A stretch of 50,595 nt of DNA from a virus. Taxonomy: Duplodnaviria > Caudoviricetes. Position numbers and translations under genes: made by a program. The first letter of the stretch is position 1. Each line of letters opens with the position of its first letter. Location: positions 1 to 50,595 of IMG/VR virus record IMGVR_UViG_3300009604_000003. One strand, 5' to 3'. Below the pieces are notes generated by a model. It was not told the DNA's origin, ran no database searches, and saw only the letters and a list, made by a program, of their open reading frames with translations. Below, one piece after another: positions 3,216 through 50,284 of this stretch.

Positions 3216-3268
3216 CTCCCCCTCCCCCCTCTCTCTTCATTCTGAAGAGAGAGAGGGGGGAGGGGGAG
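3216..3268. promoter_or_regulatory. Conserved bulged hairpin, copy A (core CTCTCTTCA-TTC-TGAAGAGAG)
   Basis: 24-bp stem, 3-nt loop, 2 extra nt in right arm; same core at 47380 and 50238. Confidence 0.8.
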
Positions 3269-3299
3269 GTATCCGGCTTCCCCCTCTCACGTTCCTGTT

Positions 3300-3423
3300 C
3301 CTGTATATGTGAACTCCTGTACATGTGAACTGCTCCTGTACATGTGAACTGCTCCTGTAACTGCACCTGTACATGTGAACTTCACCTGCACCTGTGTATG
3401 TGAACTTCACCTGTACATGTGAA
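3300..3423. repeat. Tandem CCTGTRYATGTGAA repeats (6 full copies, 1 truncated)
   Basis: Copies at about 3300, 3316, 3335, 3366, 3391, 3410. Confidence 0.9.
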
Positions 3424-3426
3424 AGC

Positions 3427-3537
3427 CTCACGTGAGGGAGTCGCACCCTCACGTGAGAATGGAGAGTTATATCTCACGTGAGGAGATCATCCTCACATGA
3501 GAAAACTCACGTAAGAGAGAGTTATCTCTCACGTGAG
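3427..3537. repeat. Array of CTCACGTGAG palindromes (4 perfect, 2 variant)
   Basis: Perfect at 3427, 3448, 3473, 3528; CTCACATGAG at 3492; CTCACGTAAG at 3506. Confidence 0.9.
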
Positions 3538-3550
3538 GGAAGGGAGAAAA

Positions 3551-3584
3551 ACTCCCTAGAGAGAGGGAAGTCCCTCTAGGGAGT
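3551..3584. other. Inverted repeat/hairpin downstream of early gene 2
   Basis: ACTCCCTAGAG...CTCTAGGGAGT, 11-bp arms with inner GAGGGA/TCCCTC. Confidence 0.7.
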
Positions 3585-3592
3585 GGGATTGA

Positions 3593-3892
3593 TCAGACCA
3601 TGGCAACCTCCCTTGGAACGAACGGGATTCCCTCCTGAAGGAGGAATCGTTCAGCCTCATCCCTCAGTATGGAGTAGTTGTAGTCCCCGTCTCCATTCAG
3701 ATCGAAGAGGTTGACATCCTCTCCTTCCTGAACAAAACCGTGAGAGAAAGCGAAGAAGATGAACTTGATGTCATTCTTCACGAACTCTGTAACTGAAACA
3801 GGTTCCTTCACGTGAAGGACTGTCTCTGTACCGCTAACGGGAAGTCCTGAAACTGTGACTCTCTCAGTCATAGACTCATTGAATAAACTCAT
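3593..3892 (-). CDS. Hypothetical immediate-early protein (acidic C-terminal half)
   Basis: 99-aa ORF with AGGGAG SD; hairpins inside the coding sequence. Confidence 0.75.
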   Translation of the reverse strand: MSLFNESMTERVTVSGLPVSGTETVLHVKEPVSVTEFVKNDIKFIFFAFSHGFVQEGEDVNLFDLNGDGDYNYSILRDEAERFLLQEGIPFVPREVAMV

Positions 3893-3938
3893 TGCTGTAC
3901 TCCCTTTCAGAGTAGAACTAAAGACTAAAATGGAAAAA

Positions 3939-3993
3939 CTCCCCCTCTCTCGGAGAGAGAGAGGGAGCGGATTCGATCTCTTCAGAAGAGATC
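3939..3993. other. Two adjacent intergenic hairpins
   Basis: CTCCCCCTCTCTC-GGA-GAGAGAGAGGGAG and GATCTCTTC-A-GAAGAGATC. Confidence 0.7.
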
Positions 3994-4477
3994 AGACTTG
4001 GTTACAGATCCAACGAGAGGTCTTCACTCTCTTAGCATTGTGAAAGATCTTGTTGAAGATCATTCCAGACTGAGAGACTCTCTCTTCAATGGGAAGAGAA
4101 AGCCAGTTCTCAATGGCAAAGTGCTGAGCCTTTGAAGCCCAAACTCGGTTCTCTAGGGAGAACCGGACATTCACTTCCAAACCGGGAAGTTGAGAGGCTT
4201 TCAGGGGAGGAACTGGCCATCCAGACAGTTTCACCAGAGACCTTCCCTCTTCAGCAGGGAGACAGTGAAACTTGATCTCAGTTTCAGTAGGAACTGAAAC
4301 TGGAGCCTCGTTCCCAGAACTCACAGAGTGAGTTCTGGAGAGTTCCATTTGGAGTTGGATCAGAGCCTTGGTACTGAGTCCTTGGAATGTAGCACCTCTC
4401 ATTGAAGGATGGTCCTTCTTGATCCTAGAGATGATACTTTTTCTTGGACTGAGACGATTCTTTGTTGAAACTGTCAT
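3992..4477 (-). CDS. Hypothetical immediate-early protein (first gene of the leftward transcript)
   Basis: 161-aa ORF with AGGAG SD; basic N-terminus; dense internal hairpins. Confidence 0.75.
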   Translation of the reverse strand: MTVSTKNRLSPRKSIISRIKKDHPSMRGATFQGLSTKALIQLQMELSRTHSVSSGNEAPVSVPTETEIKFHCLPAEEGRSLVKLSGWPVPPLKASQLPGLEVNVRFSLENRVWASKAQHFAIENWLSLPIEERVSQSGMIFNKIFHNAKRVKTSRWICNQV

Positions 4478-4539
4478 TGCAGAAATCTCCTAAATCGAAG
4501 AGGAAGAAATCCGAGCCGAGCCGAAACTTTTTCAGCCCG

Positions 4540-4651
4540 CTGCCCTTCTTTCTTCTCTCTTCTGTTCTCTTGAAGAGGGAAATCTCTCTCCCCTCACTTT
4601 GTTCGGGGAGAGATATTTCCCGTCGAACAGAAGAGAGAGAAAGAAGGGCAG
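4540..4651. promoter_or_regulatory. Long imperfect stem-loop upstream of the first early gene
   Basis: 27-bp outer stem with 1-nt bulge, plus 17-bp inner stem GGGAAATCTCTCTCCCC/GGGGAGAGATATTTCCC with one mismatch. Confidence 0.7.
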
Positions 4652-4709
4652 TACTTGCCATCTAACTATCTCCTAGTACTAAAGACATATGGCGTCGGCC
4701 TCGAAAATC

Positions 4710-4738
4710 GGGGGGAGGAGGGAGGGGAGGAGAGGGGG
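4710..4738 (+). other. Polypurine tract matching the G-quadruplex consensus
   Basis: G6-AGGA-G3-A-G4-AGGAGA-G5. Confidence 0.55.
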
Positions 4739-4812
4739 AAGTACAGATAACTAAGAAGACCGGACATCTTTGATGCTTACTTATCTATTAGAACTTACTA
4801 AGTCTCTTCACG

Positions 4813-5111
4813 ACAAACACTTAGAATCCATAGGATTATAAGTGTTTGTGAAACTCTGGTTTACCAGAGTTTCACGGCGCACGTTGGGTCACACAGTACA
4901 GAGTACTGTGTGACCCCGATCTGATTTCAAAGTACCACTTAGCATATCTCTTTGGAGATATGCTAAGTGAACCCAGCCACAACGTACCCCTTACTCTGTA
5001 AGGGGTACGTTGGTTTTCCAGAGCCGATCATCGCTTTACAGTACTAACAGGGTTAGTACTGTAAAGCGTACGCGTCTCAGGGGTCGGGTCACATCGTGAC
5101 CCGACCCCTGA
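4813..5111. repeat. Array of seven tandem sequence-distinct hairpins
   Basis: Stems of 13-17 bp with loops of 2-4 nt at 4813-4849, 4848-4875, 4886-4916, 4936-4969, 4980-5012, 5032-5068, 5077-5111. Confidence 0.95.
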
Positions 5112-5197
5112 CGGCGGGGTTGCTTTTTAGTTATAACCTGCCCCAAGCAAATCTAAATATTTTTGGTACACTCCAGACGATCACAGGAGGATCTCAA

Positions 5198-5554
5198 ATG
5201 GATATACCTATCCCTAAAAAAGCGTGGCCTATTACTGATAAGTTCTTGGTGTACCCCGATCCACCCGACAAGGAAACAGAGGCGGGTATTATAATCACCG
5301 CAAGTTACCCCAAGTTCACTGGAACTGTAGTCAAGTTACCAGCAGATATTGAGGCGATTGATAGTCGTGGTTCATCGCACACTAAGTTCGATGCGAAGAA
5401 GAACGATATCGGCACGTTTGTTACTGTCGGTTCACGAATCCAATGGTCTAGTCAAACCGGATTCGCGGTTCCAGTTACCGTAGATGTAGATGGGGAAGAC
5501 ACTGACTATCTTCTATTCACCATTAGAGATGTGGATTTGATACTAGATGTTTGA
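5198..5554 (+). CDS. groES: GroES-like co-chaperonin
   Basis: PITDKFLV, ETEAGIII mobile loop, GTVV, VTVGSRI, DGE..YLL..RDV pattern; ATG 5198 follows an AGGAGG SD. Confidence 0.8.
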   Translation: MDIPIPKKAWPITDKFLVYPDPPDKETEAGIIITASYPKFTGTVVKLPADIEAIDSRGSSHTKFDAKKNDIGTFVTVGSRIQWSSQTGFAVPVTVDVDGEDTDYLLFTIRDVDLILDV

Positions 5555-5669
5555 ATTGCCTTTTTTAACTATGATCGCAGATAAATGGAAACTTCCCTTC
5601 GATGAGGGAGAAGGTGATATATTAATAATAGAAGAAGAAGAAGAACCAGAGGACGAACCTGATGGTTAG
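5547..5669 (+). CDS. Small acidic protein (40 aa), not in the ORF track
   Basis: MFELPFLTMIADKWKLPFDEGEGDILIIEEEEEPEDEPDG; overlaps the groES stop and the terL start. Confidence 0.4.
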   Translation: MFELPFLTMIADKWKLPFDEGEGDILIIEEEEEPEDEPDG

Positions 5670-7905
5670 GACAAACAAGGGTTCTATGTCGGTTAGTGAG
5701 CAAGAAGCCACTAAGCACGGTATGTCTCTGCCTTATATTCCCGGTGCTGAGAAGCCTAGTTGGATAGATCGTAAAGAAGACGTTTGGCTTGATAAAGACC
5801 ATACGCAGATCAACCCCTCCTACTTGATTGAGGAGAGGGATAGGATCATCGATTTTTCTGACAAGCATTTTAATTACTATGGATTCCGCTGGCTCATGGA
5901 GGCGGATATGTTGAAGGGCATCGTAGAGCAGGCCAAGCACTTTGGTATTGACCTGACTACGTTTGCGCCCGAGACGCTTTCTTTGAAAGACATTCAGAAT
6001 TTTGACCAGTTGATAGAAGCGGGCAGTGAGACTCTTGAGATTCTCATTAAGCGCATTGAAGATGGTCATGAGCGGGCTGTCCGCATGTTGGACGAAGCAA
6101 AAAAAAAGCGTTGGGTCGATACGCTCAAGAAAATATCGATGGTAAGGGAATTGTGCAGAGAAAAAGATCACCCAAGTCTCGACGCAAAAAGTCGGGAGGG
6201 TGAGGCTTGGCGCTACATGCATACGCTTAGGTTTGCGTTGTATGTAGGGCGAAGTGACATTACCGGCAAGTTGGACTTCATCCACTTACCAGATCACCTG
6301 ATCCTTACGGATCTTGTGAAAGAGATCGCATACGAATATCGGGAAGACGCTGAGATTCAGGGTGTCATGATTGTCATCCCGCCTCGTCACGGAAAGTCAT
6401 GGTTCATGATTTTCGATGAGTTGCTTGCTATCTGCATGAATCCAGATGAAATTGGGGCGATCATCCATAACTCAGAGGACATGGCTGCCAGTCGTCTGAA
6501 GGTTATTAAAGAACATTTCAACGATCAGTTGCCGCAGGGGAAGCGGCGGCGTGCTTTGTTCCCCGAGATTAAGATGGATTGGAATATCAATAATAGTCAG
6601 ACGATGGTTCTTCAGAACCGGAATGTCATGGCGATGGAAGGGAACTGCAACTCGTACGGTTTGCACGGCAAGCGCCTCGGTGTCACGATTCACCGTCTTA
6701 GAGGTGATGACATCATTGACCAGAAAGAGTGCAGAGAATCGTCAACTAGACAGAGAACCAACGAAACCTTTACGAAGGTGTGGCTGTCTCGATTGACTTC
6801 GAAGAGAGCATTCTTCTTTATCATCGGTACTAGGTGGCATGACGATGACATCCTCGGAAAGATGCTCAGAATGCTTCGTGCCGGTCAGACCAATTTTGCA
6901 TATGTCTCCATCCCTGCTGGCGGGCCAGAGGATGACTTCACTCCTATCTGGCCGGAGGTAGGATACGACACAAGATATCTTGAGCGGTGGTTCTATACCT
7001 TGGGGCCACAGGACTACTCCTGCATTTTCCAGAATGATCCTGACACTGCAACAGCACGTAAAATCACGAAGTTATGGTTCTATGACAAGCGGTGGGTAGA
7101 AAATCCAGACGATGCTCCGCAGCATGTAAGGAACTTCTTAGCACGTGGAACTTATGCCCTATCGGTTGATCCTGCCGGAACAGAGGCTAGGAGATCTAAC
7201 AAGGCTGGAATGACTTATTGTGTGTATGGGCCTATGGAGGTGAAGTTGCCATCAGGCCTCATTGTTGAGCAACAAACTATGTGGTTCTTGCGCAACTGGG
7301 ACTTGTCTGCCAGTCAATACACCATTACAAAGATAATCTCGGACTTCTATAATAGGCAAAGAAGGGCGGATGGAAGGCCAGAGGTGGATCGTATAGTCGT
7401 TGAAACCACCGGGGGTTTCCATGCGACTACTGAGATGCTCATCAATGATCGTGGTATTCCTGATAGCGTGGTCATTAAACGCGCTCCGGGTAAGGGAAAT
7501 AAGATTGATCGGTTCCTCCAATACTCTGCGTTTATTGAGGGAGGCAAGGTCTATTTTCCGGGTACACCATCCAAGGGTATATCGGATGACGAGCAACTTG
7601 TTATGGACAACGATTGGTCTGAAGCGGCCAACCAGATGTTGCGAGCGGGTACTGTTAGTGATTTGAACCTGCTGGACTGTATATCCCAGCAGTTGGCAGA
7701 TGTCGCCTATATCTTCATGGAAGATAATGTCCACGATCATCCCGAACTTCTTGCTAGGGAGAGGGCGCGTCAATCTTCTTATGGCGAGGTTAAGTTGGAG
7801 ATGTACAAGAGGAAGATGGAGGGAGACAAGAGAAAGAAGGACCGAAGGAAGAATGGTTCATCTCTTGGTTATTTACGTCAAATTCAATCGAGGAGATTTG
7901 GGTAA
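5662..7905 (+). CDS. terL: Terminase large subunit with long N-terminal extension
   Basis: VIPPRHGKS Walker A, GDDIID Walker B, IIGTRWHDDD motif, SVDPA RNase H nuclease motif. Confidence 0.9.
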   Translation: MVRTNKGSMSVSEQEATKHGMSLPYIPGAEKPSWIDRKEDVWLDKDHTQINPSYLIEERDRIIDFSDKHFNYYGFRWLMEADMLKGIVEQAKHFGIDLTTFAPETLSLKDIQNFDQLIEAGSETLEILIKRIEDGHERAVRMLDEAKKKRWVDTLKKISMVRELCREKDHPSLDAKSREGEAWRYMHTLRFALYVGRSDITGKLDFIHLPDHLILTDLVKEIAYEYREDAEIQGVMIVIPPRHGKSWFMIFDELLAICMNPDEIGAIIHNSEDMAASRLKVIKEHFNDQLPQGKRRRALFPEIKMDWNINNSQTMVLQNRNVMAMEGNCNSYGLHGKRLGVTIHRLRGDDIIDQKECRESSTRQRTNETFTKVWLSRLTSKRAFFFIIGTRWHDDDILGKMLRMLRAGQTNFAYVSIPAGGPEDDFTPIWPEVGYDTRYLERWFYTLGPQDYSCIFQNDPDTATARKITKLWFYDKRWVENPDDAPQHVRNFLARGTYALSVDPAGTEARRSNKAGMTYCVYGPMEVKLPSGLIVEQQTMWFLRNWDLSASQYTITKIISDFYNRQRRADGRPEVDRIVVETTGGFHATTEMLINDRGIPDSVVIKRAPGKGNKIDRFLQYSAFIEGGKVYFPGTPSKGISDDEQLVMDNDWSEAANQMLRAGTVSDLNLLDCISQQLADVAYIFMEDNVHDHPELLARERARQSSYGEVKLEMYKRKMEGDKRKKDRRKNGSSLGYLRQIQSRRFG

Positions 7906-8273
7906 TGGGCATTACACTTGTAACGGTACTCGTAATGGGCGGGGTCGCTTTGGCAGCCATTGGGATCATGGTATTCCAGTGGAGTGTTGTTAATCGTTTG
8001 GAGGAGAAACTGATTTCCGTAGTAATGGACGTTCACGAGGAAAGCCGCTTCTATCACAATGCTGGCAGGTCAAGTGCCGAACATCAACTAAGCATTGAAA
8101 GATTGAATATAGAAAAGATCCAAGCAGAGGCCGAAAAAGCAAAGGCAGAAGCGGCTAGGATGACAGAAGAGAGATTGACAAAAGAAACATTTATAGGTAC
8201 AGGCCCTCCTAAACACGGAAAACGTGGACACCGTAGAACTGTCGTAGAGGCCGCAGGCGGACCAAATGGCTAA
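7905..8273 (+). CDS. Hypothetical membrane-anchored coiled-coil protein
   Basis: N-terminal hydrophobic helix and AEAEKAKAEAA coil; coupled to terL and portal. Confidence 0.7.
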   Translation: MGITLVTVLVMGGVALAAIGIMVFQWSVVNRLEEKLISVVMDVHEESRFYHNAGRSSAEHQLSIERLNIEKIQAEAEKAKAEAARMTEERLTKETFIGTGPPKHGKRGHRRTVVEAAGGPNG

Positions 8274-10371
8274 ATACTCATCAGCCAAAGAAATCTTAGA
8301 ACGAGTCGATGATTTACGCGAAGAGCATCAGATGCTTCGCGCAGATCTCGCGGTTTATAGCGCGTTGGGCGTGTCATATGCCCATGGCAAGCAGTGGAAG
8401 GGTATGGATTCTTCCAACTTTGGGGATCTTATTATTGATGAATGGGAAGAGAACTACGACTTGCAGACTCGTGAGTTGCGCGTCGTAGACAATAAGGTTG
8501 GCCCCCTGCTCAGGCGGATGCAGGCCGATCTAAACCCCACAAAAATTGAGGCGAAGGTTTCAACACCTCGCCACTTGTGGGGTTTGAAGGAGAATCAACT
8601 AGCCAATACATGCGAGAAATTGTTATTGGGTATTGAAGAAGATGCCCAATTCACGAAGGCGGCGGCCCATGCTAGTTTCATGCGGTGTATTGAAGGTAGC
8701 CATTTGATGGTTATCGAGTTGTCACAGAAGAAAAAGTCTATCAGGAAGGAGGTGATCAAGAATAAGGACGGGTCGCCGGTTGAGGTAAACGATAGATGGC
8801 TTAGGTGGACAACGGCTCCACTTACTGACTTGGTTTGGGATCCCTCTAATATCCACCCAGATCTAACCCAGCACACTGTTCTGATGCTTGATCAGGTCAA
8901 AACGATCAAGCGCTTTGAGGAGATGTTTGGTCCCATTGAAAAATATGGGGTTAAAGAAGAAGATCTTCCGACCCTTGATGAGATTGCTCCGTATTACTCA
9001 CAAGCCGCTGATATAACCGGAACATCTCTTCACATCGCCTATAACGCCTATCGCAAAGAGAAGGCGGTTAAGGTCATCACTCTCCTTGAGCGTGATCCAA
9101 GAGATCCCACCATTTGGCCTACTTGCTACTTCATTCTTGATACCTCTTCTAGAGAAACCAAGAGTCGTGGCAAGGTTTTGAATATGGATAATCCAAAGAG
9201 TCCCTTTGGGCACCATGGTCGCAACATATTCAAATTGGACTGCTTTAAGAGATCGGATTCTGTGTCGGGTGCAGGCGCGCCACATGTAATGATGACAACG
9301 CAGGATCTGATCAACATGCTGCGATCAATCCAGATGCAAGCGGTGTCAGCGCAGGTTCATGGGCAGTGGCTTGTAGATAAGCAGACTGTTGATCCAGATG
9401 AATTCATGAATAAACTGAACTCCGGTATAGGCTCGGTACTTCAGTACGACAGTCGTGGCCCGGAGAATCGGAAGCCACCGCAGTTGGTATCAATGGGGAA
9501 TGTTGACAACAACCTTCTCCTTATTGCCAATGATCTATCCAACGGTCTTAGAGATCAGATCCACTTGAGTGGTGCGAACTTGGGTATCGGTAAGACTCAC
9601 ATGCCACAGCAATATGCGTTGCGCCTCTTGGAAGAAGCGGGGGCGGTTAAGGATCAGTTGATCACTGCTGATGTGAATACATACGGTGATATGCTAAAGG
9701 TAACGCTTGGAACCATTAGAGATATCATGGATACGCCGAACAGAATGCTCAAAAGGCTTATCGATGTTCATGGGTTTACAAAGGAAGATCTGGTTGGTTT
9801 TAAGAAGTTGGATGCAAAACTGATCAGATTTAATATTTTTGCACGAGAAAAATCAATAATTAGTAGGAGTGTTGCGGAGAGGCAGCAGCAACTAACCGAG
9901 GCACTTCAAGCGCAAACCATTACGCCACAGGAGTATTGGATTGGCATGGCAACCGACATCAAACAGCCGATTCTTAACTCTCATGACGACATAATCAACT
10001 GGTGTAATCGCGCAGTAGAGCAAATAGTTAACGGTGAGGAGTGGCAGGGAGTGAGTTCAATCGATGCTTCTGTCTTCAAATACTGCATAAATACGGCTGT
10101 TACTGGCCTAGATTACACGATTCCCGAAGATAAAGAGATTATCGAGCGGCTTAATAGAGCGGTTCTAATTCAGTTCACGGTATCCGCTGAAGCAGCGATG
10201 GCTGAACAGCAGATACTCCAATCGGCCATGCCTCAGCAGCCGGGACCAGAGCCGCAGGGCATGCCAGAGGGTACTCCGGGTATGAGTATAGGGCAGGCAC
10301 CGGAATCAATTAACCCACAAACCAATCCAGTAGGAGCCGCAGGTGGATTACCACTTGGACTTTCTGCATAA
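8266..10371 (+). CDS. Portal protein (probable)
   Basis: 701 aa, between terL and scaffold/MCP; YAHGKQW and VVDNKVGP N-terminal pattern of P22-like portals; Q/P-rich tail. Confidence 0.75.
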   Translation: MAKYSSAKEILERVDDLREEHQMLRADLAVYSALGVSYAHGKQWKGMDSSNFGDLIIDEWEENYDLQTRELRVVDNKVGPLLRRMQADLNPTKIEAKVSTPRHLWGLKENQLANTCEKLLLGIEEDAQFTKAAAHASFMRCIEGSHLMVIELSQKKKSIRKEVIKNKDGSPVEVNDRWLRWTTAPLTDLVWDPSNIHPDLTQHTVLMLDQVKTIKRFEEMFGPIEKYGVKEEDLPTLDEIAPYYSQAADITGTSLHIAYNAYRKEKAVKVITLLERDPRDPTIWPTCYFILDTSSRETKSRGKVLNMDNPKSPFGHHGRNIFKLDCFKRSDSVSGAGAPHVMMTTQDLINMLRSIQMQAVSAQVHGQWLVDKQTVDPDEFMNKLNSGIGSVLQYDSRGPENRKPPQLVSMGNVDNNLLLIANDLSNGLRDQIHLSGANLGIGKTHMPQQYALRLLEEAGAVKDQLITADVNTYGDMLKVTLGTIRDIMDTPNRMLKRLIDVHGFTKEDLVGFKKLDAKLIRFNIFAREKSIISRSVAERQQQLTEALQAQTITPQEYWIGMATDIKQPILNSHDDIINWCNRAVEQIVNGEEWQGVSSIDASVFKYCINTAVTGLDYTIPEDKEIIERLNRAVLIQFTVSAEAAMAEQQILQSAMPQQPGPEPQGMPEGTPGMSIGQAPESINPQTNPVGAAGGLPLGLSA

Positions 10372-17091: not shown

Positions 17092-20000
17092 TTAGAACTT
17101 AGGTTGCTGCGGAATATGTTGTCCGGGGACAAATCCCTCGCGCCTAAGAACCGTCATATCCTCTCTTCTAAATTGCGGATGTAGCACCTTGGGAACCCTC
17201 TGTCTCATGCCAGAATGCCACATAATCCGATACTCTTGAATAATTCTTGTTGCTATACTTTCTGCTAAAACTTCGTCGCCTTCTCTTACTGCTCTATTTA
17301 CCTGTCTTTTTAAAGCCTGAATATCCTTGTTTCTTTCCATGCTAATTCGCATCTGCAATTTTCCGATGTCTAGCGGCTGCCATCTACCCCTAACCGCTAG
17401 TTTATATAGTACACCCTCTAAGCCGTCTGTTTTCCCTGCTTGTGTTAATTGATTATAAGAACCAACCCACCCGATTTGCCTTCTTAGATACTCTCCGATT
17501 GATAACCCGCCGAGTTCTTTGTCTCCGATTAGTCGTTGATCGAAGGTTTGTATTCCCAAAGCAATTTCAATTGGTGCCTTAATTAAAGGCGAAGAAGACA
17601 TAAGGAAATAATGCATCATTTCCTTCAATCCTTCTGCGCCATAGAGTGCTTGACCGATTTCCGCGAGTTCTTGAATAGGTGTTAGTGTCCCAATCCTAAG
17701 ACCCTTGGTGGTACCGTCATCCGCGCTCATCTGTATCATGAGTTGATTGCGCTGATATCGCGGCAATATAAATGTCGGTACTTTATCTTCTTCCTTTAAT
17801 GTTTCTTCCTCTATCGCGTGTTTGATCTTCTGGAAAGAAGCGTGATATTTAGGTTTCTCGAATAGCAGTTTGAATTGAAGTGCAATGTTATTTCTCTGCC
17901 ACGCATAGAATGGAATAACTCGTCGTCCAATAGACTGTTCGAGATTGGTGAAGTCCCCGTAATCGAAGTGCGCCTTCTTCATCAACAACTGGGCTGCTTC
18001 CAGAGAATCGCCCCTGTCTCGCCTTGCCATATAAACAAGTGTTCTAAATGTATCGTCGATAGATGCATTTAGTTTGAACCACCAAGCACCAAGTGGACCT
18101 GCGGTGGCGATATTTTTAAGGAAGCCTTGTTTAACCTTTCGGGCCTGTGCATTGGGATTGGCGTAGGCCGTTCTATGAGTCATAAAGATTTCGCGCGCAA
18201 CCTGACTTCCATCCAGCGCATTAATACGAACAAGATGTTCGGCAAACTGCGTTTCGTTTAATTCTTCACCCGCAATGATATATTTTTTGGTGTCGTCGAA
18301 AGACAGTCCCGGTCCATGTGGAATGGTTTTTGCCAACCTGTTGCCGAAGTGGTATTGGCTCGCAATATGATGTGCCTTCCTGAAGTTTCTAAAGAAATCA
18401 GCGGGCGTAAGTTCTCCAACTACGATTGAGTGGATGACTCCCCCCATTATATTTACAGTGGTCCAGCCGGGGTGCATCAGGACCGTACCTTTCCAGATGG
18501 ATTGTATGTAATCAAACATACCGGCTATAGCGGATAGATTCTGGTCGTTGGTTATCTTGGTTAGATAATCTTCAACGGATGCTGCGAGATCTTCTGGATA
18601 CCAGAGATGCTTCCCCTCAGTTCCAAATAGCGCTTGTAGTGTTGCATCGTCTCTGACTTCTTTAGACAATCTTCGGTAAGAAACATTATTAATAATGATC
18701 TCCCCGCCTTCGCTAATTGATCCTACTCCAGCGCGGGGGTTTCTTACATAATCCTGAATCTCAGCATCCTTTAGGATCTTTATTTCAGGGCCAATGTAAT
18801 TCAGGAAATCATGCACTGCTTCTATGCGGTGATGTTGCTTGGCTCTGTTCCCAAGAACAAGACCTAAATCAGTTTCGAAGATTTCTCCCGCAAAACTATT
18901 GCCAGTTAAGTGTGCAAATCTGTCTCTTACACCCGGTCTATTTAGTTCATATGGGCTAGTTGGGTGTGCTTTGAACTGCCACGATTCACCTTTAATATCG
19001 CCTCCGGGCAGCCCGCCAGTTTTGCCTTCTGCAAGTAGCGCTTGGTTATATTCCGCGATATCTCCGGGCAGCATCTTCTCCGGGTTTTGTCGTAGGAATG
19101 TTCGTCTTGCTAGTTCATACGCCTCTGGCAAATTGCCATCGTTTATCTGCTGGCTAAATACATAGGACCAACCCTGACCAGTTTCATCAACCCAGTCCGG
19201 GTCATGTTCTGTTGGATACCAATGCCTGTTCGTTGCCCTATGTCTACCGGATGGCTCGTTTATCGATATCCTTCCGGTAGAAGGATTCCTTCGAACACCA
19301 AGAGCGCCCTGTTGATATGCCGCTTTTTGCGCTTCCTTGGTAAATCGTAATGGTATATAGGCAAATGCGGGGTTATACGTGCCCTGTGCGGCCCAATCCG
19401 ATTCACTTAATCCATATTGTCTATGCCTATCAACAACCTCTTGGGCTAGATCCGTGATCTGCTGATCCTTCCAGATAGCATCTCGCCCCCCATGCTTAGC
19501 CATTACGTTGTCTAGTGACTGAGGATTAGATGGATCAAATATCCAATCTGATTTATGGAATCCTCTTAGACCGTGTTTGCCGCCTTCTTGCAGTTCTATC
19601 ATCTTGGCGAGGAGGATTACATTAGCGTCCTCGATATCCATGTCGTGTCTTTTTGCTATTGTCTTTACACTTTTGTCATAGTGCCTAATAACAAGAGACT
19701 GCTTGAATCCCGGCAGGTTGCCGTGTGCGTATCTGAATCTCGATACGGCTTCACCAGATGTAGCATATCTTCTACCAACACCAGTTACGTTTCGGAATAC
19801 CCGATCAAATCTTTCCGCTACTTTAGCCGCTGAGTTTACACGGCTTTTCTTCATGGTATCCAACTTCGCGTCAATGGGTGCCCTTGCTTTACGAGCGGCA
19901 TCTCTAGCCATCTGCACTTTTTCGTTTAGATCTACAGTCGAACTGGCAAGATCTTCTATATGGTTATAGTGCCCTCTGTTCTTGGCTTCAATCCGGGCCT

Positions 20001-30607: not shown

Positions 30608-31008
30608 TACTTGTTGTCCTGTTTCCTATGGAATGGTACCCACTCATTGAGTTTTGCCTTGCGTTTGTTGCAACCACAATCTCCAGTGGGCTTTATTCCC
30701 GTTGTCTTACTGATAACTTTACCAACTAAATCCCCTAATCCCCCCATTTCTTTTAAGGATTTCATGATGCGCTTAAAGATGTTGGGCTTTTTAACACCCG
30801 ACCTTCGCGCAAATTCCTTTGGAGAAACGGTTTCTATATAGGGGGCTAGAGGCGATGTGCTTTGACCTACTACCTTGGTCCGGTAGCGCACTGTTGTATC
30901 ATCGCTGTTTATGCGATGTCTCACCGTTCCCAGTGAGTGCCGGACTATCTCTTCGTCATTATGACGCTGGGCGCTCGTGGATGTATTATCGATTTGGCTT
31001 CTCAACAT
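30607..31008 (-). CDS. Hypothetical protein with GLGD...CGC..R...LN motif
   Basis: GLGDLVGKVI...GIKP..DCGCNKRKAKLN, a motif recurrent in environmental phage proteins. Confidence 0.65.
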   Translation of the reverse strand: MLRSQIDNTSTSAQRHNDEEIVRHSLGTVRHRINSDDTTVRYRTKVVGQSTSPLAPYIETVSPKEFARRSGVKKPNIFKRIMKSLKEMGGLGDLVGKVISKTTGIKPTGDCGCNKRKAKLNEWVPFHRKQDNK

Positions 31009-31102
31009 CTAGTCTCTGCACCTTCCGCTTACTTTAATACCATTCAGCGGCTTGGCTCAGGATTGCCGGTTCTCGGTTTCCCTGAATTCACCCAGTAAAG
31101 GC

Positions 31103-41789: not shown

Positions 41790-43130
41790 TTAGTTCGCTG
41801 ACTTGATCATTCTGAGTAATGCGTCAGACATTTTTGCCTTATTCCGCACACACCAGAGTATACCTTCGTCAACTGTCCTATCGGCAACAATGTGGTAATA
41901 GGTACAGGGATTCTCCTGACCTTTTCTATGAATTCTATCTCTCGACTGTTGGTACCTCTCATACGAGAAGTCCATCGAGTAGTAGATGGCGTAACTGGCG
42001 GCGGTTAGTGTGATGCCGTGACCAGATGCAGCCGGGTGACAGATCAGCGCGCCTAGTTTCCCCTCTTGGAAATCGCTAATGATCTTCTCGCTGTCCTTAG
42101 TACGCCCATCCAAGATCCCGTATTCCTTGCCCATTTCGCTTAGCACCTTGGAGATTGAGTCGATCTCTGCTCGGAAGTGCGCCCAGATAACCACGGGTTC
42201 ACTCCCCAGTTCCTCCAGTATGCGCATCAACTCAGTCAGTTTTGGCTGGCCGTTCGTTAGAAGGGTGTGATCTCCCTCGTAGTAGAACCCACCTGACAAC
42301 TGCCGCATCTTCATGACCTTTGCCTGCCCTGCCGGGGATAGAATCTCGCCGTTCATTTCTGCGGCCAGTCCAGCGTAGGTCATTTCATACGTGGCCCTGT
42401 CCTTAGTATCAAGGTCAACAACTCTAATGATGTCGGTTTGTGGCGGCAGATCCAGAGCATCCTTCTTAGACAGGCTCCAAGAGTGTGCCCCTAGTTTCTC
42501 GCTAAACTCTTCCTGCCTGTCTTTGCGGGGGATGTATCCGACGATGACATCCCGGCCATTGATGGGCCTAGTCTGCTTATAGAAGAACCGGGCAGCGAAG
42601 CCGTAGAAACTCCTACCGAATACCTCCATGCCAATGGCCCTCATCTGTGTGAAGTATTCCGTTGGACAGTTAGGCGCAGGAGTACCAGACAGGAGGTAGA
42701 CGCTCTTCATTTCATCAGCGAACTCTATCGCTGCGGCTGTTCTCTTGGCCTTATGGCTCTTTATCATGCTCGATTCGTCCAAAATCAGACGCTCGACCCC
42801 TACCTCTCGCAGTTCTTTCACGTGATTTTTGAACAAATCTATGTTGATTACGAGGATATCTGCGTCACTTCTGATCAGTTCAAGCCTCTTCTTCTTGTTG
42901 CTTGCCCAACAGCAGACGATGTTCAAGTGCGGAAAGAACCTCTCCGCATCTGCTATCCACGCTGCCTTCATGACAGACTTGGGACACACAACCACCGTCT
43001 TCATAGGCTGGTCATCTATGATCGCCAGTGATCCGGCGGTCTTGCCTAGTCCCGGCTGTAGCCAGAACCCATAGCGTGGACGCTCCCGCGCTATCTCCAT
43101 CATCCTGATCTGGTGTTCCATTAGTTTCAT
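41790..43130 (-). CDS. SNF2-family (SF2) helicase
   Basis: PGLGKT, ILDESS, LLSGTP, GHGITL, QSRDRIHRKGQ motifs. Confidence 0.92.
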   Translation of the reverse strand: MKLMEHQIRMMEIARERPRYGFWLQPGLGKTAGSLAIIDDQPMKTVVVCPKSVMKAAWIADAERFFPHLNIVCCWASNKKKRLELIRSDADILVINIDLFKNHVKELREVGVERLILDESSMIKSHKAKRTAAAIEFADEMKSVYLLSGTPAPNCPTEYFTQMRAIGMEVFGRSFYGFAARFFYKQTRPINGRDVIVGYIPRKDRQEEFSEKLGAHSWSLSKKDALDLPPQTDIIRVVDLDTKDRATYEMTYAGLAAEMNGEILSPAGQAKVMKMRQLSGGFYYEGDHTLLTNGQPKLTELMRILEELGSEPVVIWAHFRAEIDSISKVLSEMGKEYGILDGRTKDSEKIISDFQEGKLGALICHPAASGHGITLTAASYAIYYSMDFSYERYQQSRDRIHRKGQENPCTYYHIVADRTVDEGILWCVRNKAKMSDALLRMIKSAN

Positions 43131-43312
43131 TTCTTGCGCCTCTTGTATCCCGCCTTATTCTTGGAGATGCGAGACTTAGATCGATCCTTGACCGTTCCAC
43201 TGTGCGTGTGCGGTGAAATTGACGTGGTGATGACATCTTTCGCACAGACGTAAGAATTCACGAGTTTTCTCATTGAAACATACGAGTGCAAGGCAAAGTG
43301 TGATAGAGGTAT

Positions 43313-43654
43313 TCATGCGTCACCTCCCGTAGCCTTGGCGATTGCACGGTCTATGATTACGCGCAGTGGCAATTCCTCCCCGTTGAAGTCTCTAACCACT
43401 AACAAGGAAGGATATAGATATGACAGTTCAGTACGGGGCATGTGCAGCCCGTCCATTATTTGAAGTGCGGCCAGCATGTCGGGGGCTGCTGCAATCAGTT
43501 GCTGGTTCATCCACTTTGTCTCCCAGCATTTTATTGTGCGCCCAAGGTTCTTCCCCTTGGCAATTCGCGCTATAAACGTAGGTTCCTCGCGTGTTCCAGT
43601 GAATACCGCCCCGGCGAAGGCATTCCACGGTCCCGGTGTGTGTTGAGTAGTCAT
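43313..43654 (-). CDS. Conserved phage protein (HTPGPW...IAAAPDML family)
   Basis: Characteristic HTPGPW and LIAAAPDMLAAL motifs. Confidence 0.75.
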   Translation of the reverse strand: MTTQHTPGPWNAFAGAVFTGTREEPTFIARIAKGKNLGRTIKCWETKWMNQQLIAAAPDMLAALQIMDGLHMPRTELSYLYPSLLVVRDFNGEELPLRVIIDRAIAKATGGDA

Positions 43655-45168: not shown

Positions 45169-45289
45169 ATTGATCCTTCCTTAGAGATTCCCCCCGCCCT
45201 TCCACCGAGAGTGCGAGACATCACGCCGAAGATGCGGCGGATTTGATCCGTCAAAAGCACACCGGATTCCAGACGGGGGGAGATCATAG

Positions 45290-45598
45290 TCATACTCTAA
45301 ATCCTGCCGCCCTTAGTATCTTCTTGGCTGTCGAGGTCAAGTAGATCTGTGATTGCGGCTTCCACGGTTCGTATCTGATTAGTCCCACCTTCGCCATTCG
45401 CCTGATAGTTCTTCGCACGCTCCTGTTTTCCAAGAGTCCAGAGAGAATCACATCTCTCTTAGTCGGGTTCTCTGAACACAGGAGCATTTGCTTTGCCGTA
45501 TGAATGGCGGTCGGTGTGCTTAGTACACGTATCCTTTCTACTGCTGTCGCTAGTTCGTTGATCCGATCAAAGGTCGGGGTCTGCTTCTCTTGTTCCAT
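45290..45598 (-). CDS. Winged-helix DNA-binding protein (possible)
   Basis: SVRRTIRRMAKVGLIRY...IYLTSTAKKIL wHTH-like pattern. Confidence 0.5.
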   Translation of the reverse strand: MEQEKQTPTFDRINELATAVERIRVLSTPTAIHTAKQMLLCSENPTKRDVILSGLLENRSVRRTIRRMAKVGLIRYEPWKPQSQIYLTSTAKKILRAAGFRV

Positions 45599-46010
45599 AT
45601 TTACCCAGTGATCTTAGTTCTAGGGCTGTTAGTTGGTCGAACCTCGGGTCGCTACCCCCGAACTTATACTTCACCCGGCTCGTCTTCTCCTCCACTTCGG
45701 AAGCGTCCAAGATAGCCGGAGTCGGGAGAGTCTTCCTCGGGATTTTCTCGTCGCTGATCTGGAGTGGCCTCACTTGAGTCGATGTAATGTTGTATTCTTT
45801 CAATCGCTTTGAGAGTGTATCTGTGTAGTTCTTCAACGCACGCTCTATCGTCCGGCATGATTCGATCCTCCATTTCTCGCCCTTCCCTTGAGTCGGGCTT
45901 TCTAACCAGAGCAATGCCCACTCTAACGCTTGGACCTTCCACAGTAGTTTGGTCAGGTTCTTACGTACAGACTTGAGGCTGCGTCTGCGTTCTCGCATCT
46001 GCTTGAGCAT
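45567..46010 (-). CDS. Hypothetical protein
   Basis: 147-aa ORF; overlapping alternative frames exist. Confidence 0.5.
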   Translation of the reverse strand: MLKQMRERRRSLKSVRKNLTKLLWKVQALEWALLWLESPTQGKGEKWRIESCRTIERALKNYTDTLSKRLKEYNITSTQVRPLQISDEKIPRKTLPTPAILDASEVEEKTSRVKYKFGGSDPRFDQLTALELRSLGKYGTREADPDL

Positions 46011-46122
46011 AGGCTTCCCTGCTTATATCGGTAACGATGATTAGTCTGCTCCAGAAGAGCAGCACAAAGCAGGCGGTGTTCGCCATTAGCACCAACCTGC
46101 TTTGCACCGCACGCTCTTCCAC

Positions 46123-46554
46123 TCATCCCTCTCTAGGCGATTTCTTACCCCAACGGGTTCTCACAGCATCTGCCGCCTTGAACCCTTCCATTCCTCCGGT
46201 TACAGGGGCAATCGAATCGAGTACCTCTTCGGTATCGGTTTTCAATGTTGGCCTGCCCCTTTTGACATCACCCTTGGACCCGTTCCTATAGACGTACCCA
46301 GTGTAGGTTCCATCTACTTCACGGTCATGGCGGTAGGACATATGCAAATCATGCTTGCTAAGCATGTTGTAGTTGCTGACTAAGATGCGAACGTAGTCGC
46401 TCCTAGATCGCTTCATGGGACTAATCTCTATGTGAGATTCCTTCTCACTGGTAAGTTTCTTATCGATAAGGTCGAAGAGTTGCCCCCTAAGACCAAGACG
46501 TACCAGCCCGAACGTGGGCTGGCCCTTTTTTACCTTGAACTGTAGTTCATTCAT
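46123..46554 (-). CDS. Hypothetical protein
   Basis: Start reassigned to ATG 46554 after an AGGAG SD. Confidence 0.65.
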   Translation of the reverse strand: MNELQFKVKKGQPTFGLVRLGLRGQLFDLIDKKLTSEKESHIEISPMKRSRSDYVRILVSNYNMLSKHDLHMSYRHDREVDGTYTGYVYRNGSKGDVKRGRPTLKTDTEEVLDSIAPVTGGMEGFKAADAVRTRWGKKSPREG

Positions 46555-46954
46555 TGTTCCAGTCTCCTTGCTGCATGTAGTCACTGATACCTCTAAGGAG
46601 GTTTTCCTCCACCGCATCGATACTCTTGATGCGAACATTCTCATCATCACAATCTGGAAGACCCTCGTTAGTCACATCTACGAAGTTGTTACCGTCATTT
46701 AGCACTTCTAGGTATGGGACATGCACAAGGATCTTGGTTCCAGTGTCGTTATCTCGAAGAACAAATCCAACGCGGACCTGTTCTTCACCTTTCATTTTGC
46801 CACTGGCGAACGTGAATCCCTCCACTACACAGTCGTGTAGAGAAGAAACAGCACAGCCAGCGTCTAGCATCTTCTCCCGTTCATCGCTTGAGGCTTTCTG
46901 GAAGAACGGGTAGTCTTCCAAAACCCTTTCCATTTTGTCTCTGTCAATCATCAT
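46547..46954 (-). CDS. Hypothetical protein
   Basis: 135-aa ORF in a tightly packed operon. Confidence 0.7.
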   Translation of the reverse strand: MMIDRDKMERVLEDYPFFQKASSDEREKMLDAGCAVSSLHDCVVEGFTFASGKMKGEEQVRVGFVLRDNDTGTKILVHVPYLEVLNDGNNFVDVTNEGLPDCDDENVRIKSIDAVEENLLRGISDYMQQGDWNNE

Positions 46955-47369
46955 CTACCCCCTCAAGTATTGATTCGTACGCAGAACCCCATGTCTGGTC
47001 GGTCATCACAGACAGTGTGGTAACGTCTTGTAGGAACTGCTTCGGATTGCTCCATTTCTCAGCGATCTCCTCGCTTTTCATACGGATACGCTGCATCTTT
47101 CCTATGAATATCAGGAAGCACGCCGCAGTTTCGTCATCTGAATATGGCGGTGGTCCCATCGGTTCATGTACGAAGTCAGCAAACTCCATCATCTTGTCTT
47201 TGCCCAACTCGAACATGTCGTCAACGTCTTCGGACTCGGACAGTCTCCCGGCTTGCTTGCCCACCATGACGGCGGCTTCAGCAAGGCATCCGGCTACGCT
47301 TTCCATCACCTTTACATATACGTTCTGTGATTTTTCGTCTTCTGCATCAAACATTTTTAACCCTTTCAT
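46944..47369 (-). CDS. Hypothetical acidic protein
   Basis: 141-aa ORF downstream of hairpin B. Confidence 0.7.
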   Translation of the reverse strand: MKGLKMFDAEDEKSQNVYVKVMESVAGCLAEAAVMVGKQAGRLSESEDVDDMFELGKDKMMEFADFVHEPMGPPPYSDDETAACFLIFIGKMQRIRMKSEEIAEKWSNPKQFLQDVTTLSVMTDQTWGSAYESILEGVDDD

Positions 47370-47379
47370 TTTTCATTAC

Positions 47380-47424
47380 CACCCTACCCCCTCTCTTCAT
47401 TCTGAAGAGAGAGAGGGTAGGGTG
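47380..47424. promoter_or_regulatory. Conserved bulged hairpin, copy B
   Basis: CACCCTACCCCCTCTCTTCA-TTC-TGAAGAGAGAGAGGGTAGGGTG. Confidence 0.8.
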
Positions 47425-47460
47425 TATGGCTACCATAGCCACTCTATACCGCCTGTCAAA

Positions 47461-47790
47461 CTATTCACCATGCAACTCTCTTATAACCCGCACTAAGACT
47501 GCTCTCGATACTTCAAGTAGTCGCTTCTCAAGTACCAAGTCTCCGCTTTTGTATGCTAACACTGCTAACTCCTGCATGGTTTTGTACAAATCATCGGTCT
47601 TGGCAACCGCGATTATGTGTTCCTTCTTTATATCGGACCACGATTTTTCATCCACAATCTTCATGGATACACGCTCACCGCTCCACAAGAGCAGCCTACG
47701 AATGTCACCTATGCTTTTCTTATCGTCCCAATACAGGCGATTGACTAGAAGTTCCTCTTCTTTTAGTACGGATAACTTCTTACGGCCCAT
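47461..47790 (-). CDS. Hypothetical protein
   Basis: 109-aa ORF. Confidence 0.7.
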   Translation of the reverse strand: MGRKKLSVLKEEELLVNRLYWDDKKSIGDIRRLLLWSGERVSMKIVDEKSWSDIKKEHIIAVAKTDDLYKTMQELAVLAYKSGDLVLEKRLLEVSRAVLVRVIRELHGE

Positions 47791-48169
47791 CGGTGTAGTC
47801 CTCGTTTAGGGAATACACCTCGAACCGTGGCTCTTTTAGCATGTTTGGGATCTCTTTCCTGACATTCTCGGGGACGCTTAGAGTCTCCCCCTCATCATCG
47901 ATGCAACCCATTACCAAGACATCACCATGTATTGGGTTAGTGAAGGCGGGCCACTTGTCGTTCCTTAGTAGCCATAAGCAGGCAGGCATATTGATCGGCA
48001 GTTCATTGATAAGCCCCTCCTCATTGATGTACACGGATACACTGTGCTTCATTTCATCTATAGAGAGGGCCTCTATTAGTCCACCGACACACTTTTGCAT
48101 GTCTTCTAAGCCGTTTATCTCTACGTCCTCCACTTTTCCTGACGTTTGAATCCATATTCCATGCTTCAT
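47780..48169 (-). CDS. DUF3846-like protein
   Basis: LEDMQKCVGGLIE, YINEEG, LPIN..A, IHGDVLVMG motifs. Confidence 0.75.
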   Translation of the reverse strand: MKHGIWIQTSGKVEDVEINGLEDMQKCVGGLIEALSIDEMKHSVSVYINEEGLINELPINMPACLWLLRNDKWPAFTNPIHGDVLVMGCIDDEGETLSVPENVRKEIPNMLKEPRFEVYSLNEDYTDGP

Positions 48170-48396
48170 ACTGGGTACTCCTTAGTTTCAAAAAATCTAG
48201 TGGGCAGGTATCTCTTCGCTGACCTGCCACCCTTGGTTACATCCATGTACTCTATAAGCAGGGGAGTACCTATGCTCCCCTGCTTAGTCCATTGCTTACG
48301 AAGAACCGTAAGAGCCTTGCTTTTGGGGTACGTTTTCTCGGTAAACGCCTCAATCGCATGGTCCCTAGCGTGGATCTTCGCTTCACTCACTGTCAT
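48166..48396 (-). CDS. Hypothetical protein
   Basis: ATG 48396 overlaps the upstream gene end. Confidence 0.6.
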   Translation of the reverse strand: MTVSEAKIHARDHAIEAFTEKTYPKSKALTVLRKQWTKQGSIGTPLLIEYMDVTKGGRSAKRYLPTRFFETKEYPV

Positions 48397-49105
48397 CGTC
48401 GGTATCTTCACCGATAATCTCCAGTGTATAGGCATTCGAAGCCTCGATCACAGCAGCAGTACGCTCATCTAACTCACCACTCTTCAACCTTATTCTGCCA
48501 GCCGTTATACGGGGTTTCCCGTCTGGACGGCTAGGGTCTGGATGGGACACCTTTTCCAAGATGAATGGCGAGAGATAATCTGGAGTGGTAGCCCACACGC
48601 CGCCAACCTTTAGTGAATCCATTATTCCATCGAACCAATCCACCCACTCGGAGGCATCGAACCCATTCACAACCACACCACTTGTGATTTCATGACGAGG
48701 TTGGCCGATGCTTGCTGAGGCTGAGTATCCAGTCTCAATCTTCTTTGTGATCCTTGCCTGAAGATCACGTGCCTCAAATCCACGGCCTATCATCTCACTA
48801 GGCTCGATCTCTAGTTGACCCGCTATCGCCCTTAGTGCCGATAGCCCGTAGATAGAGTTCTCTATGCTGTCCACCTCGTTGCCATCGGGATCAAACAGCG
48901 CACCCTTTTGACCGTCTGTTTCCTTGGTGTTGTGGATTGTTTCTGAAAGCGAAACGAATGCACCTAGTTCTGCACCCGTTTCCTTGGCAGCATGCTCTGC
49001 TCCAAAGATGCCATGACCATTACACATGTTCACGAATGAGACTAACTGTTCCTTAGTAAGGGGAACCTTGGCCTCGCCAATATAAATATCACTCATTGTC
49101 CTCAT
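48383..49105 (-). CDS. Hypothetical protein
   Basis: 240-aa ORF. Confidence 0.7.
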   Translation of the reverse strand: MRTMSDIYIGEAKVPLTKEQLVSFVNMCNGHGIFGAEHAAKETGAELGAFVSLSETIHNTKETDGQKGALFDPDGNEVDSIENSIYGLSALRAIAGQLEIEPSEMIGRGFEARDLQARITKKIETGYSASASIGQPRHEITSGVVVNGFDASEWVDWFDGIMDSLKVGGVWATTPDYLSPFILEKVSHPDPSRPDGKPRITAGRIRLKSGELDERTAAVIEASNAYTLEIIGEDTDDDSE

Positions 49106-49335
49106 CCTTCTTTTACAGCCTGTAGGAGACTGTCTCCTACCCTTAGAACCGTTGATATATTCACGCCCTTATCATCTACATGATCCACGATCCACTGTTC
49201 GCACTCCGCAGTGTCCCCTAGATACTCTGGTACACGTAGAATCTTGCACCCCTCAATGGAGTCCCATGTCTCGCCGTCACTTAGTACGACCACCATTTCG
49301 TCACTCATCCGAATCACCTGCACTAACCAGTTCAC
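49102..49335 (-). CDS. Hypothetical protein
   Basis: VVLSDGETW motif; true start probably MSDEM. Confidence 0.6.
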   Translation of the reverse strand: MNWLVQVIRMSDEMVVVLSDGETWDSIEGCKILRVPEYLGDTAECEQWIVDHVDDKGVNISTVLRVGDSLLQAVKEG

Positions 49336-49741
49336 CCGTTGAACTATCTTCCGTCACCAATGCGGTACTGGCTACGTTGCTAAGACCCCTTAGCAGTGTT
49401 GGCAAGACTGACCGCGAGATTGCTGCTCGGAAAGAATCAGATTGCATCTGCTCATCTAGAAGAGTGGATAGAGCGTTCTTCGTTATCAACTCGATCTCTG
49501 CCTTGGCACAAGTACGAATAATCGACCTGATATTCTCGCTGATCTGCTCTTCGACTGCCTCTGAACACATATCAGCAGCCTTGTCTTCAGTCATAACATC
49601 TGAACCGAAGTGATTATCGATAGTCTCCGTGATGAGAGTCTCGATCCGACACTCCATCTCATCGAACATCTCGTCTGAATCGACATCGAAATATACATCG
49701 ACACAAGTATCAATATTTACACTGTCACCTACATGCATCAT
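49301..49741 (-). CDS. Hypothetical acidic helical protein
   Basis: 146 aa, D/E-rich. Confidence 0.7.
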   Translation of the reverse strand: MMHVGDSVNIDTCVDVYFDVDSDEMFDEMECRIETLITETIDNHFGSDVMTEDKAADMCSEAVEEQISENIRSIIRTCAKAEIELITKNALSTLLDEQMQSDSFRAAISRSVLPTLLRGLSNVASTALVTEDSSTGELVSAGDSDE

Positions 49742-50211
49742 TCATCTCCTAAAAGTTCCTTGAGTGAATCAACACCGACCTTGTTTAGCACGTTGCTTTT
49801 CATGTGTTCGGCGTACTCTTCATCTGTCTCTGCATAATCTGCTGCTGCCTTGAATACATCATTACCTAACTCTGAGGCATCGCTAGAATCCAGCGTCCAC
49901 TCACCATAATCCCTAATAATCCCCAACAGTTTTGTGTAACACCCATGTGGAGTGGGGTCGCCGGGTCCAATCTGGTTTCCCTCACTGTCGTGAGTAAGGT
50001 CGTATACCAGTCCTGTTAGTGCTGCGGCAGCAACACTCTTTCTAGGGAGACATTCGAGCAATCTCCCTAGATCGACGATTTCTTGGTCCTCACGCAACTC
50101 AAGTGGCGTGCTAACCAACTTGTTTAGACCTTGCATGATTACCTTCCCAAGCAGGAAGGCACCACGATTTGATCTCATTAGGTCCATGTTTTCTTCGTGT
50201 GTCCATTTCAT
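49738..50211 (-). CDS. Hypothetical protein
   Basis: Start reassigned to ATG 50211 after AAGGA; N-terminus resembles the upstream gene (RGAFLLGKV vs RGQFIIGQA). Confidence 0.7.
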   Translation of the reverse strand: MKWTHEENMDLMRSNRGAFLLGKVIMQGLNKLVSTPLELREDQEIVDLGRLLECLPRKSVAAAALTGLVYDLTHDSEGNQIGPGDPTPHGCYTKLLGIIRDYGEWTLDSSDASELGNDVFKAAADYAETDEEYAEHMKSNVLNKVGVDSLKELLGDE

Positions 50212-50237
50212 TTCTTTGATCCTTGTTTTCGGTCTAC

Positions 50238-50284
50238 CACCCCTACCCCCTCTCTTCATTCTGAAGAGAGAGGGGGTAGGGGTG
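50238..50284. promoter_or_regulatory. Conserved bulged hairpin, copy C
   Basis: CACCCCTACCCCCTCTCTTCA-TTC-TGAAGAGAGAGGGGGTAGGGGTG; contains the stop codon of 50256..50579. Confidence 0.8.

Follow-up and report, generated by a model that had tools for sequence, protein, structure and literature searches.

Here we examine three long hairpins situated between early genes of an uncultured marine phage, and weigh what these elements may do. The phage is represented by the IMG/VR virus record IMGVR_UViG_3300009604_000003, all 50,595 nucleotides of which were analysed and are referred to below as the window. The record is a complete virus assembled as a circle, with identical first and last 123 bases and a unit length of 50,472 bp. 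Genes for the large terminase (5662-7905) and the portal (8266-10371), both on the + strand, mark it as a tailed phage, and its marine origin is seen in its presence in 24 metagenome runs (marine or seawater) that belong to 21 studies. A long block of - strand genes extends from about 4477 through position 1 and round the circle to 16316, and the three hairpins, HP1 (3216-3268), HP2 (50238-50284) and HP3 (47380-47424), all lie on the - strand within it.

Along the - strand from 4477, two small genes (4477-3992 and 3892-3593) come first, and a terminator scan places three T-tailed terminator-like hairpins here on the same strand (3968-3938, 3584-3551 and 3537-3506). Between these and HP1, positions 3295-3423 hold CACGTGAG palindromes and a tandem repeat of about 19 nt (some 6.7 copies at 3300-3423), with several palindromes containing CACGTGAG at 3427-3540; the whole stretch (3295-3540) looks like an operator or iteron field. 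HP1 follows, 49 nt before the ATG (3166) of an AAA_5/CobS-like ATPase gene (1886-3166), after which come a DUF7192 gene and three small genes up to HP2. The third of these, an open reading frame (ORF) of 107 aa (50256-50579, - strand) of which only residues 4-59 are conserved in the related contig G001 described below, runs through the 5' arm of HP2 and has its stop codon in the HP2 loop. The 123-bp terminal direct repeat (1-123 = 50473-50595) falls within this gene, whose start lies at 107 (= 50579), and so reflects the overlapping assembly of a circle or concatemer; it does not mark biological ends.

The first gene past HP2 (49738-50211, - strand; 157 aa, no family) has an AAGGA ribosome-binding site and an ATG (50211) 26 nt after the hairpin. 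Six small genes then lead to a sigma-70-like site, TTGACA-16-TATGGT (47432-47459, - strand), which stands between the upstream stop codon and HP3 and from which a transcript would begin at the base of HP3. This candidate promoter is a consensus match only (10/12) and is not significant by itself, as 6 promoter-like sites were found in that region against 11 expected. The ATG (47369) of a 141-aa gene with no family (46944-47369, - strand) lies 10 nt after HP3, and further small genes follow. The initial annotation, which had placed the hairpins just upstream of - strand genes and about 3.45 and 2.86 kb apart on the circle, was thus accurate in both respects, the spacings being 3453 and 2859 nt.

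Structure of the three hairpins

The hairpins share a 21-nt core, CTCTCTTCATTCTGAAGAGAG, of which the record contains exactly three + strand copies (3231-3251, 47391-47411 and 50250-50270) and no fourth. No copy arose in 100 dinucleotide-preserving shuffles (0 expected by chance), so the repeated element described earlier is real and non-random. In every copy it forms the apex of a longer inverted repeat of 45-53 nt, with inner plus outer stems of 11+13 bp in HP1, 9+12 bp in HP2 and 9+10 bp in HP3, and on either DNA strand the 5' arm is nearly all pyrimidine and the 3' arm nearly all purine. Folded as sense-strand RNA, the three have 19-24 paired positions, or about two helical turns. Predicted folding energies range from -38 to -55 kcal/mol (z = -3.7 to -7.5), with none of 200 shuffles as stable. 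HP1 is unchanged in a strain contig that is 99.7% identical (L058). HP2 and HP3 are near-duplicates with a 32-nt exact string in common, so the number of independent observations is below three.

None of the three hairpins was called in a terminator scan of both strands, whereas the three T-tailed hairpins at 3506-3968 were. HP2 and HP3 have no U-tract, and HP1 has a T-rich run only from about 8 nt past the stem. Judging from the T-tailed hairpins upstream of HP1, U-tract terminators are used in this genome; since HP2 and HP3 are without such a tract although T-tailed hairpins stand nearby, the hairpins are not plain terminators.

On the + strand the right arm is 2 nt longer than the left in all three copies and is followed by GTAT in all three, just as had been described. 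The proposal that a conserved 2-nt bulge gives the hairpins a fixed direction is not supported, however. The extra 2 nt in the longer arm are one more unit of an (AG)n run opposite a (CT)n run, so the position of the bulge is not fixed and can slide. A slipped register with a perfect helix of 19-22 bp and a loop of 8-9 nt is more stable than the triloop with bulge by 1.6-1.8 kcal/mol for all three hairpins and on both strands, and RNAalifold likewise selects it. Because the slipped register is the more stable, the bulge may not be a real feature of the structure, and the 3-nt loop is likewise found in only one of the two near-isoenergetic registers. HP1 differs from HP2 by one additional repeat unit on both arms, the one-unit difference between arms being retained, which is mildly suggestive that the arm-length difference is kept. 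The four hairpins that share the core (the three of the window and one described below) all have the longer arm on the 5' side in the mRNA sense; the rest of the hairpin family have either a 3' arm that exceeds the 5' arm by 2-4 nt or a perfect stem. With the longer arm on either side, the sequences give the family no universal directional mark.

An analogy to integron attC sites had also been drawn. Such sites carry an R''/R' core, RYYYAAC ... GTTRRRY, at the base and depend on an integrase. We rejected this candidate on inspection of the flanks, where the recurrent TAA proves to be the stop codon upstream and the stem has no GTTRRRY after it; no integrase family was found among the scanned proteins.

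Related hairpins in other marine phage contigs

No cultured relative was found among 50,697 phage records, either by megablast of positions 1-6000 or by tblastn of the portal and of a 3418-aa giant protein discussed in the last section. Relatives were reached through the ATPase: a search with the single protein returned no related loci, whereas an alignment with three homologues retrieved 28 IMG/VR loci. Two contigs, G001 (49.5 kb) and G002 (48.2 kb), encode homologues of the giant protein with 36-44% identity and also have the helicase, the primase and several early genes in common with the window; G004 and a fragment, G003, are more distant. None of the four contains the 21-nt core. In IMG/VR the exact 21-mer had no match, a version with a free loop had one unrelated match, and a 19-nt version occurred at 28 loci, none with pyrimidine/purine arms. 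A scan of the genomes of 185,579 species for a host repeat family gave 25 loci, again none with pyrimidine/purine extensions; by eye most look like ordinary A-run/T-run terminators, and they offer no clue to the host.

A metagenome scan for the core returned 22 loci, two of them relevant. One is L058, from the same phage; the other, L060, is a 2.5-kb scaffold in which the exact core, including TTC, lies within C-rich/G-rich arms. Neither blastn nor tblastx detected similarity between L060 and the window or its relatives besides the element itself; a scaffold of 2.5 kb with ORFan genes only is, however, a slender basis for declaring it unrelated, and it may belong to a related phage. After each hairpin of L060 (1-2525) comes a conserved leader, about 35 nt long, that ends in GGAGG, a T-rich spacer and an ATG; ahead of the first hairpin, GGTTGGCTGGCAAT occurs as two direct repeats. 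The leader motif had no match in IMG/VR.

We built a covariance model from the four core-sharing hairpins (three from the window and one from L060) and ran it over 581 kb of sequence. It matched the three hairpins of the window (77-83 bits), five in L060, two in G004 and one in G003; elsewhere in the window it gave weak matches only (4537-4655 and 3930-3975). All 11 hairpins have a pyrimidine 5' arm, a purine 3' arm and 14-23 pairs. Genes and hairpins have the same orientation in L060, G003 and G004, where the stem begins 0-17 nt past a stop codon in seven of eight cases; over the whole family, eight of 11 begin 0-17 nt from the upstream stop codon or span it, and at least nine of 11 have a ribosome-binding site and ATG within about 50 nt on the same strand. 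L060 alone has five hairpins for some seven small co-oriented genes within its 2.5 kb. Taken together, the sequences indicate that a small family of stem-loops between early genes exists across uncultured marine phages. Hairpins of the same kind are present in L060, G004 and G003; among these contigs the core recurs in L060 only, and the longer arm is not always on the same side.

The outer stems had been described as different in sequence yet complementary, and this is the case: among the four core-sharing copies, six of 19 consensus pairs are changed on both sides. These paired changes, together with hairpins of the same build and another sequence in other phage contigs, argue that the stems are selected as structures; gene junctions appear to retain a hairpin as such, with no constraint on its sequence. 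The loop in the mRNA sense is GAA in the window copies and UUC in the L060 copy. G001 has an unrelated 13-bp hairpin near its homologue of the 107-aa gene, with a downstream placement taken from coordinates and not from gene calls.

Each of the four relatives also has a short module of its own, repeated three to five times directly before early-gene start codons. In G002 (L037, contig 43077-43526), G003 (L041 9290-10441) and G004 (L038 19276-20155) the module consists of a small GC hairpin with a ribosome-binding site and ATG after it; that of G001 (L034, contig 45521-47283) has no hairpin and is a conserved ribosome-binding stretch.

Possible functions of the hairpins

We favour, with a probability of roughly 40%, a reading of the hairpins as sense-strand intercistronic RNA stem-loops for the processing or stability of mRNA, which may in addition serve as recombination cassettes next to ORFan genes. 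The hairpins lie between co-oriented genes, and the polycistronic transcript is itself predicted from gene order. If the - strand early region is so transcribed, the three elements would be cis-acting stem-loops in the leaders between gene blocks, where they would control mRNA processing and segmental stability. A near-perfect RNA duplex of about 20 bp is of the size cut by host RNase III; cutting, or a hairpin serving as an exonuclease barrier, would split the early message into blocks with stable ends. Action as RNA we infer from the position at gene junctions, the absence of U-tracts beside true terminators, the retained structure and the duplex of about two turns; RNase III in particular is a rather doubtful choice of enzyme. 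A role in processing or stability would reveal the way in which a phage lineage lacking cultured relatives partitions its early message, and the elements would serve as a sequence-and-structure marker of early-region gene junctions in marine viral contigs.

Among the parallels suggested by the initial annotation, the early RNase III sites of T7 fit best. In T7 such sites (R0.3-R1.3) stand between early genes, R1.1 being a model substrate. Like those described in the source cited, the hairpins here span about two helical turns, some with a slight asymmetry, which in HP1-HP3 the loop takes up in the more stable register (PMC1540722). As in T7, they are repeated between early gene blocks, near the next ribosome-binding site. 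They differ in arms that are strictly pyrimidine then purine, in a 21-nt apical core identical between copies and in having no sequence similarity to the T7 sites, and they are known from sequence alone. In the account of substrates given there, two-turn helices are the main feature, and bulges can limit cutting by RNase III so that protective 3' hairpins remain (PMC1540722).

The strands of the hairpins are not quite equivalent. The sole non-Watson-Crick position of HP3 is U.G on the - (sense) strand and A.C on the + strand, and the mismatch of the large G004 hairpin likewise reads G.U in the mRNA sense but A.C on the opposite strand. Across the family the sense fold is the more stable in seven of 11 hairpins, equal within 0.2 kcal/mol in three and less stable in one. 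Stable hairpins in host operons offer a second parallel: in malE-malF and puf, hairpins past the stop codon and without a U-tract shield the upstream segment from 3' exonucleases. The present hairpins resemble such intercistronic or REP-type stabilisers in being stable, directly past a stop codon and free of a U-tract, and differ from these host elements in being phage-borne.

Several observations weigh against a role in processing or stability. The sense-strand bias, which backs function as sense RNA, does so weakly, consisting of two G.U pairs and small energy differences. The whole 21-nt core with its loop is conserved far beyond the needs of a generic duplex, a hint that a protein recognises its sequence. 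HP1 comes after about 320 nt of terminators and repeats, which makes it an element of a 5' leader rather than one between cistrons. HP3 may be dispensable, as one low-depth contig may lack it. None of the 24 runs containing the phage is on record as an RNA run.

In another reading, the hairpins are RNA sites for a phage-encoded regulator, either an antiterminator of the lambda nut or HK022 put type or a translational operator, that recognises the apical core and turns on each early block only once it has been made. The core and loop are identical in all three copies and in one L060 hairpin while the outer stems vary, every copy heads a gene block and HP1 comes after terminators. The same core, however, reads UUC in the mRNA sense of L060 and GAA in that of the window, so loop-specific recognition is not conserved, and none of ten early proteins tested belongs to an RNA-binding or antiterminator family; we consider a regulator site unlikely. 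Its nut/boxB form we rejected on inspection; the stems are far longer than those of boxB. A similarly low probability attaches to transcription stop, pause or attenuation without a U-tract, factor-dependent or specific to the host polymerase, by which early transcription would be dosed. Very stable GC-rich hairpins directly past stop codons in eight of 11 family members would suit such a role, as would the T-rich stretch that begins about 8 nt past the HP1 stem, but two of the three hairpins have no U-tract, canonical T-tailed hairpins stand 300-700 nt away in the same genome, and a promoter-like site separates HP3 from the stop codon before it. Five stops within 2.5 kb of small co-oriented genes in L060 would, moreover, silence most of these genes. 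It is also improbable that the hairpins are mainly mobile or recombinogenic palindromic cassettes that swap accessory early genes in the manner of the promoter-early stem-loops (PeSLs) of T4-type phages, a reading compatible with a role in mRNA processing. HP2 and HP3 precede four and three genes, respectively, that have no homologue in G001-G004 and lie between conserved genes; the 21-nt core with C-rich/G-rich extensions recurs in L060, which is otherwise dissimilar by blastn and tblastx; and the last codons and stop of the upstream ORF come from HP2. Against this, the genome has only three copies, neither a transposase nor a target duplication was seen, and L060, consisting only of 2.5 kb of ORFan genes, may still come from a related phage. 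In a comparison of contigs from four runs with the window, diverged contigs break or change at hairpins, one contig of run X19 skips 47371-47428, exactly HP3, and a diverged X24 contig has a different G-rich arm before 47435; breaks are expected in any case where HP2 and HP3 have a 32-nt string in common, the X19 joint is a single contig of depth 4.3 whose intervening sequence is not known, and we regard the breaks, the skip and the altered arm as too thin to count as evidence.

The least probable reading, and in our view a very unlikely one, treats the hairpins as DNA signals read in extruded or single-stranded form, either as promoters for an injected polymerase like those of phage N4 or as stops in stepwise DNA entry. 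Three copies in the early region upstream of gene blocks, a 3418-aa protein encoded in the same genome and a perfect palindromic core that could extrude as a cruciform would all accord with it, and N4 likewise combines three early-region hairpins with 3-nt loops and a protein of about 3400 aa. In the description of N4 promoters cited here, a 5-7-bp stem carries a 3-nt loop closed by G:C, the template-strand loop has a purine at its centre and transcription starts 8 nt past the stem (PMC4496689). The stems in the window measure 19-24 bp and the closing pair is A-T; the template for the - strand genes is the + strand, where the loop is TTC and has no central purine. Family members follow almost every small gene in L060, where five in 2.5 kb are ill-fitting as promoters or entry stops. 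Pfam, PHROGs, a PDB profile search and the ESM Atlas detect no similarity of the giant protein to RNA polymerases, and its middle third is the least conserved part. Thus the short stem, G:C closure, purine loop centre and T7-like polymerase domain that the source gives for N4 were all not found here (PMC4496689). No support was obtained for the N4 analogy or the DNA-entry reading of the initial annotation, nor for a further family of hairpin promoters used by an injected polymerase.

PeSLs are another near parallel for intercistronic RNA stem-loops that may also travel. They are presented as composite terminator/promoter motifs at indel junctions, short conserved stem-loops in variable early regions beside ORFan genes, and points of exchange between otherwise unrelated sequences (PMC4122927). 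The present hairpins likewise flank variable or ORFan genes, and the element is common to the otherwise dissimilar L060. They differ in that a promoter-like match was found at HP3 only (10/12, to a sigma-70 consensus that may not be that of the host), in their much longer stems, in numbering three and not dozens, and in belonging to an uncultured marine phage of about 50 kb and not to a T4-like myovirus. Should cassette exchange prove true, modular shuffling of the PeSL kind would extend beyond T4-type phages. A broader and speculative proposal, to which we give little credence, is that long pyrimidine/purine-arm hairpins form an undescribed class marking early gene junctions in several uncultured marine phages (the window, G003, G004 and L060), with a core-sharing subfamily whose folded form would be read by a protein dedicated to it, of phage or host (a processing nuclease or antiterminator, for example), and that would travel as a regulatory cassette with ORFan genes.

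The giant protein and other features of the genome

The giant ORF (17092-27348, - strand) encodes 3418 aa and has homologues in G001, in a 3543-aa frame, and in G002. It had no Pfam match; among PHROGs it matched only phrog_9880, of function unknown (E 1e-5). Searches against the PDB, alone or as a three-sequence profile, gave no match at E<=1, and residues 901-2300 gave no usable match in the ESM Atlas. Both ends are best conserved, an HExxH motif at 2338-2342 is invariant, and there is no conserved DxDxD motif. We therefore set aside the reading of the protein as an RNA polymerase, which Pfam, the PDB, the Atlas and the motif all fail to support, although absence of similarity is not proof. 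The adjoining ORF of 805 aa (27345-29762) has no homologue in the relatives. An 818-aa Cys-rich protein is kept in G001 and G002 and had no sequence match in Pfam, PHROG or the PDB.

An Rfam scan returned a group I intron only, with no match to HP1-HP3. The intron (30920-31175, - strand; RF00028, 76.5 bits, full-length model) sits between, and partly over, ORFs at 31103-32020 and 30607-31008, neither of which has a Pfam match.

Two further structured stretches lie near the start of the - strand early genes. A 129-nt stretch at 4537-4655 (- strand) folds into a single long composite hairpin of CT/GA runs (-78.6 kcal/mol) that overlaps a possible 78-aa ORF (4661-4425). A polypyrimidine tract of 33 nt is found a little upstream (about 4709-4741). 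Seven tandem, unrelated hairpins (4813-5111) fill the intergenic region from which the - strand early genes and the + strand structural genes diverge. Five of them are perfect and two show 94% complementarity; the stems measure 13-17 bp, most loops have 3 nt, and AC-NNN-GT closes four of the seven. As the contigs of G001 and G002 both stop just upstream of the ATPase, in the equivalent region, 4813-5111 may be the site of physical genome ends, a packaging site or an origin.

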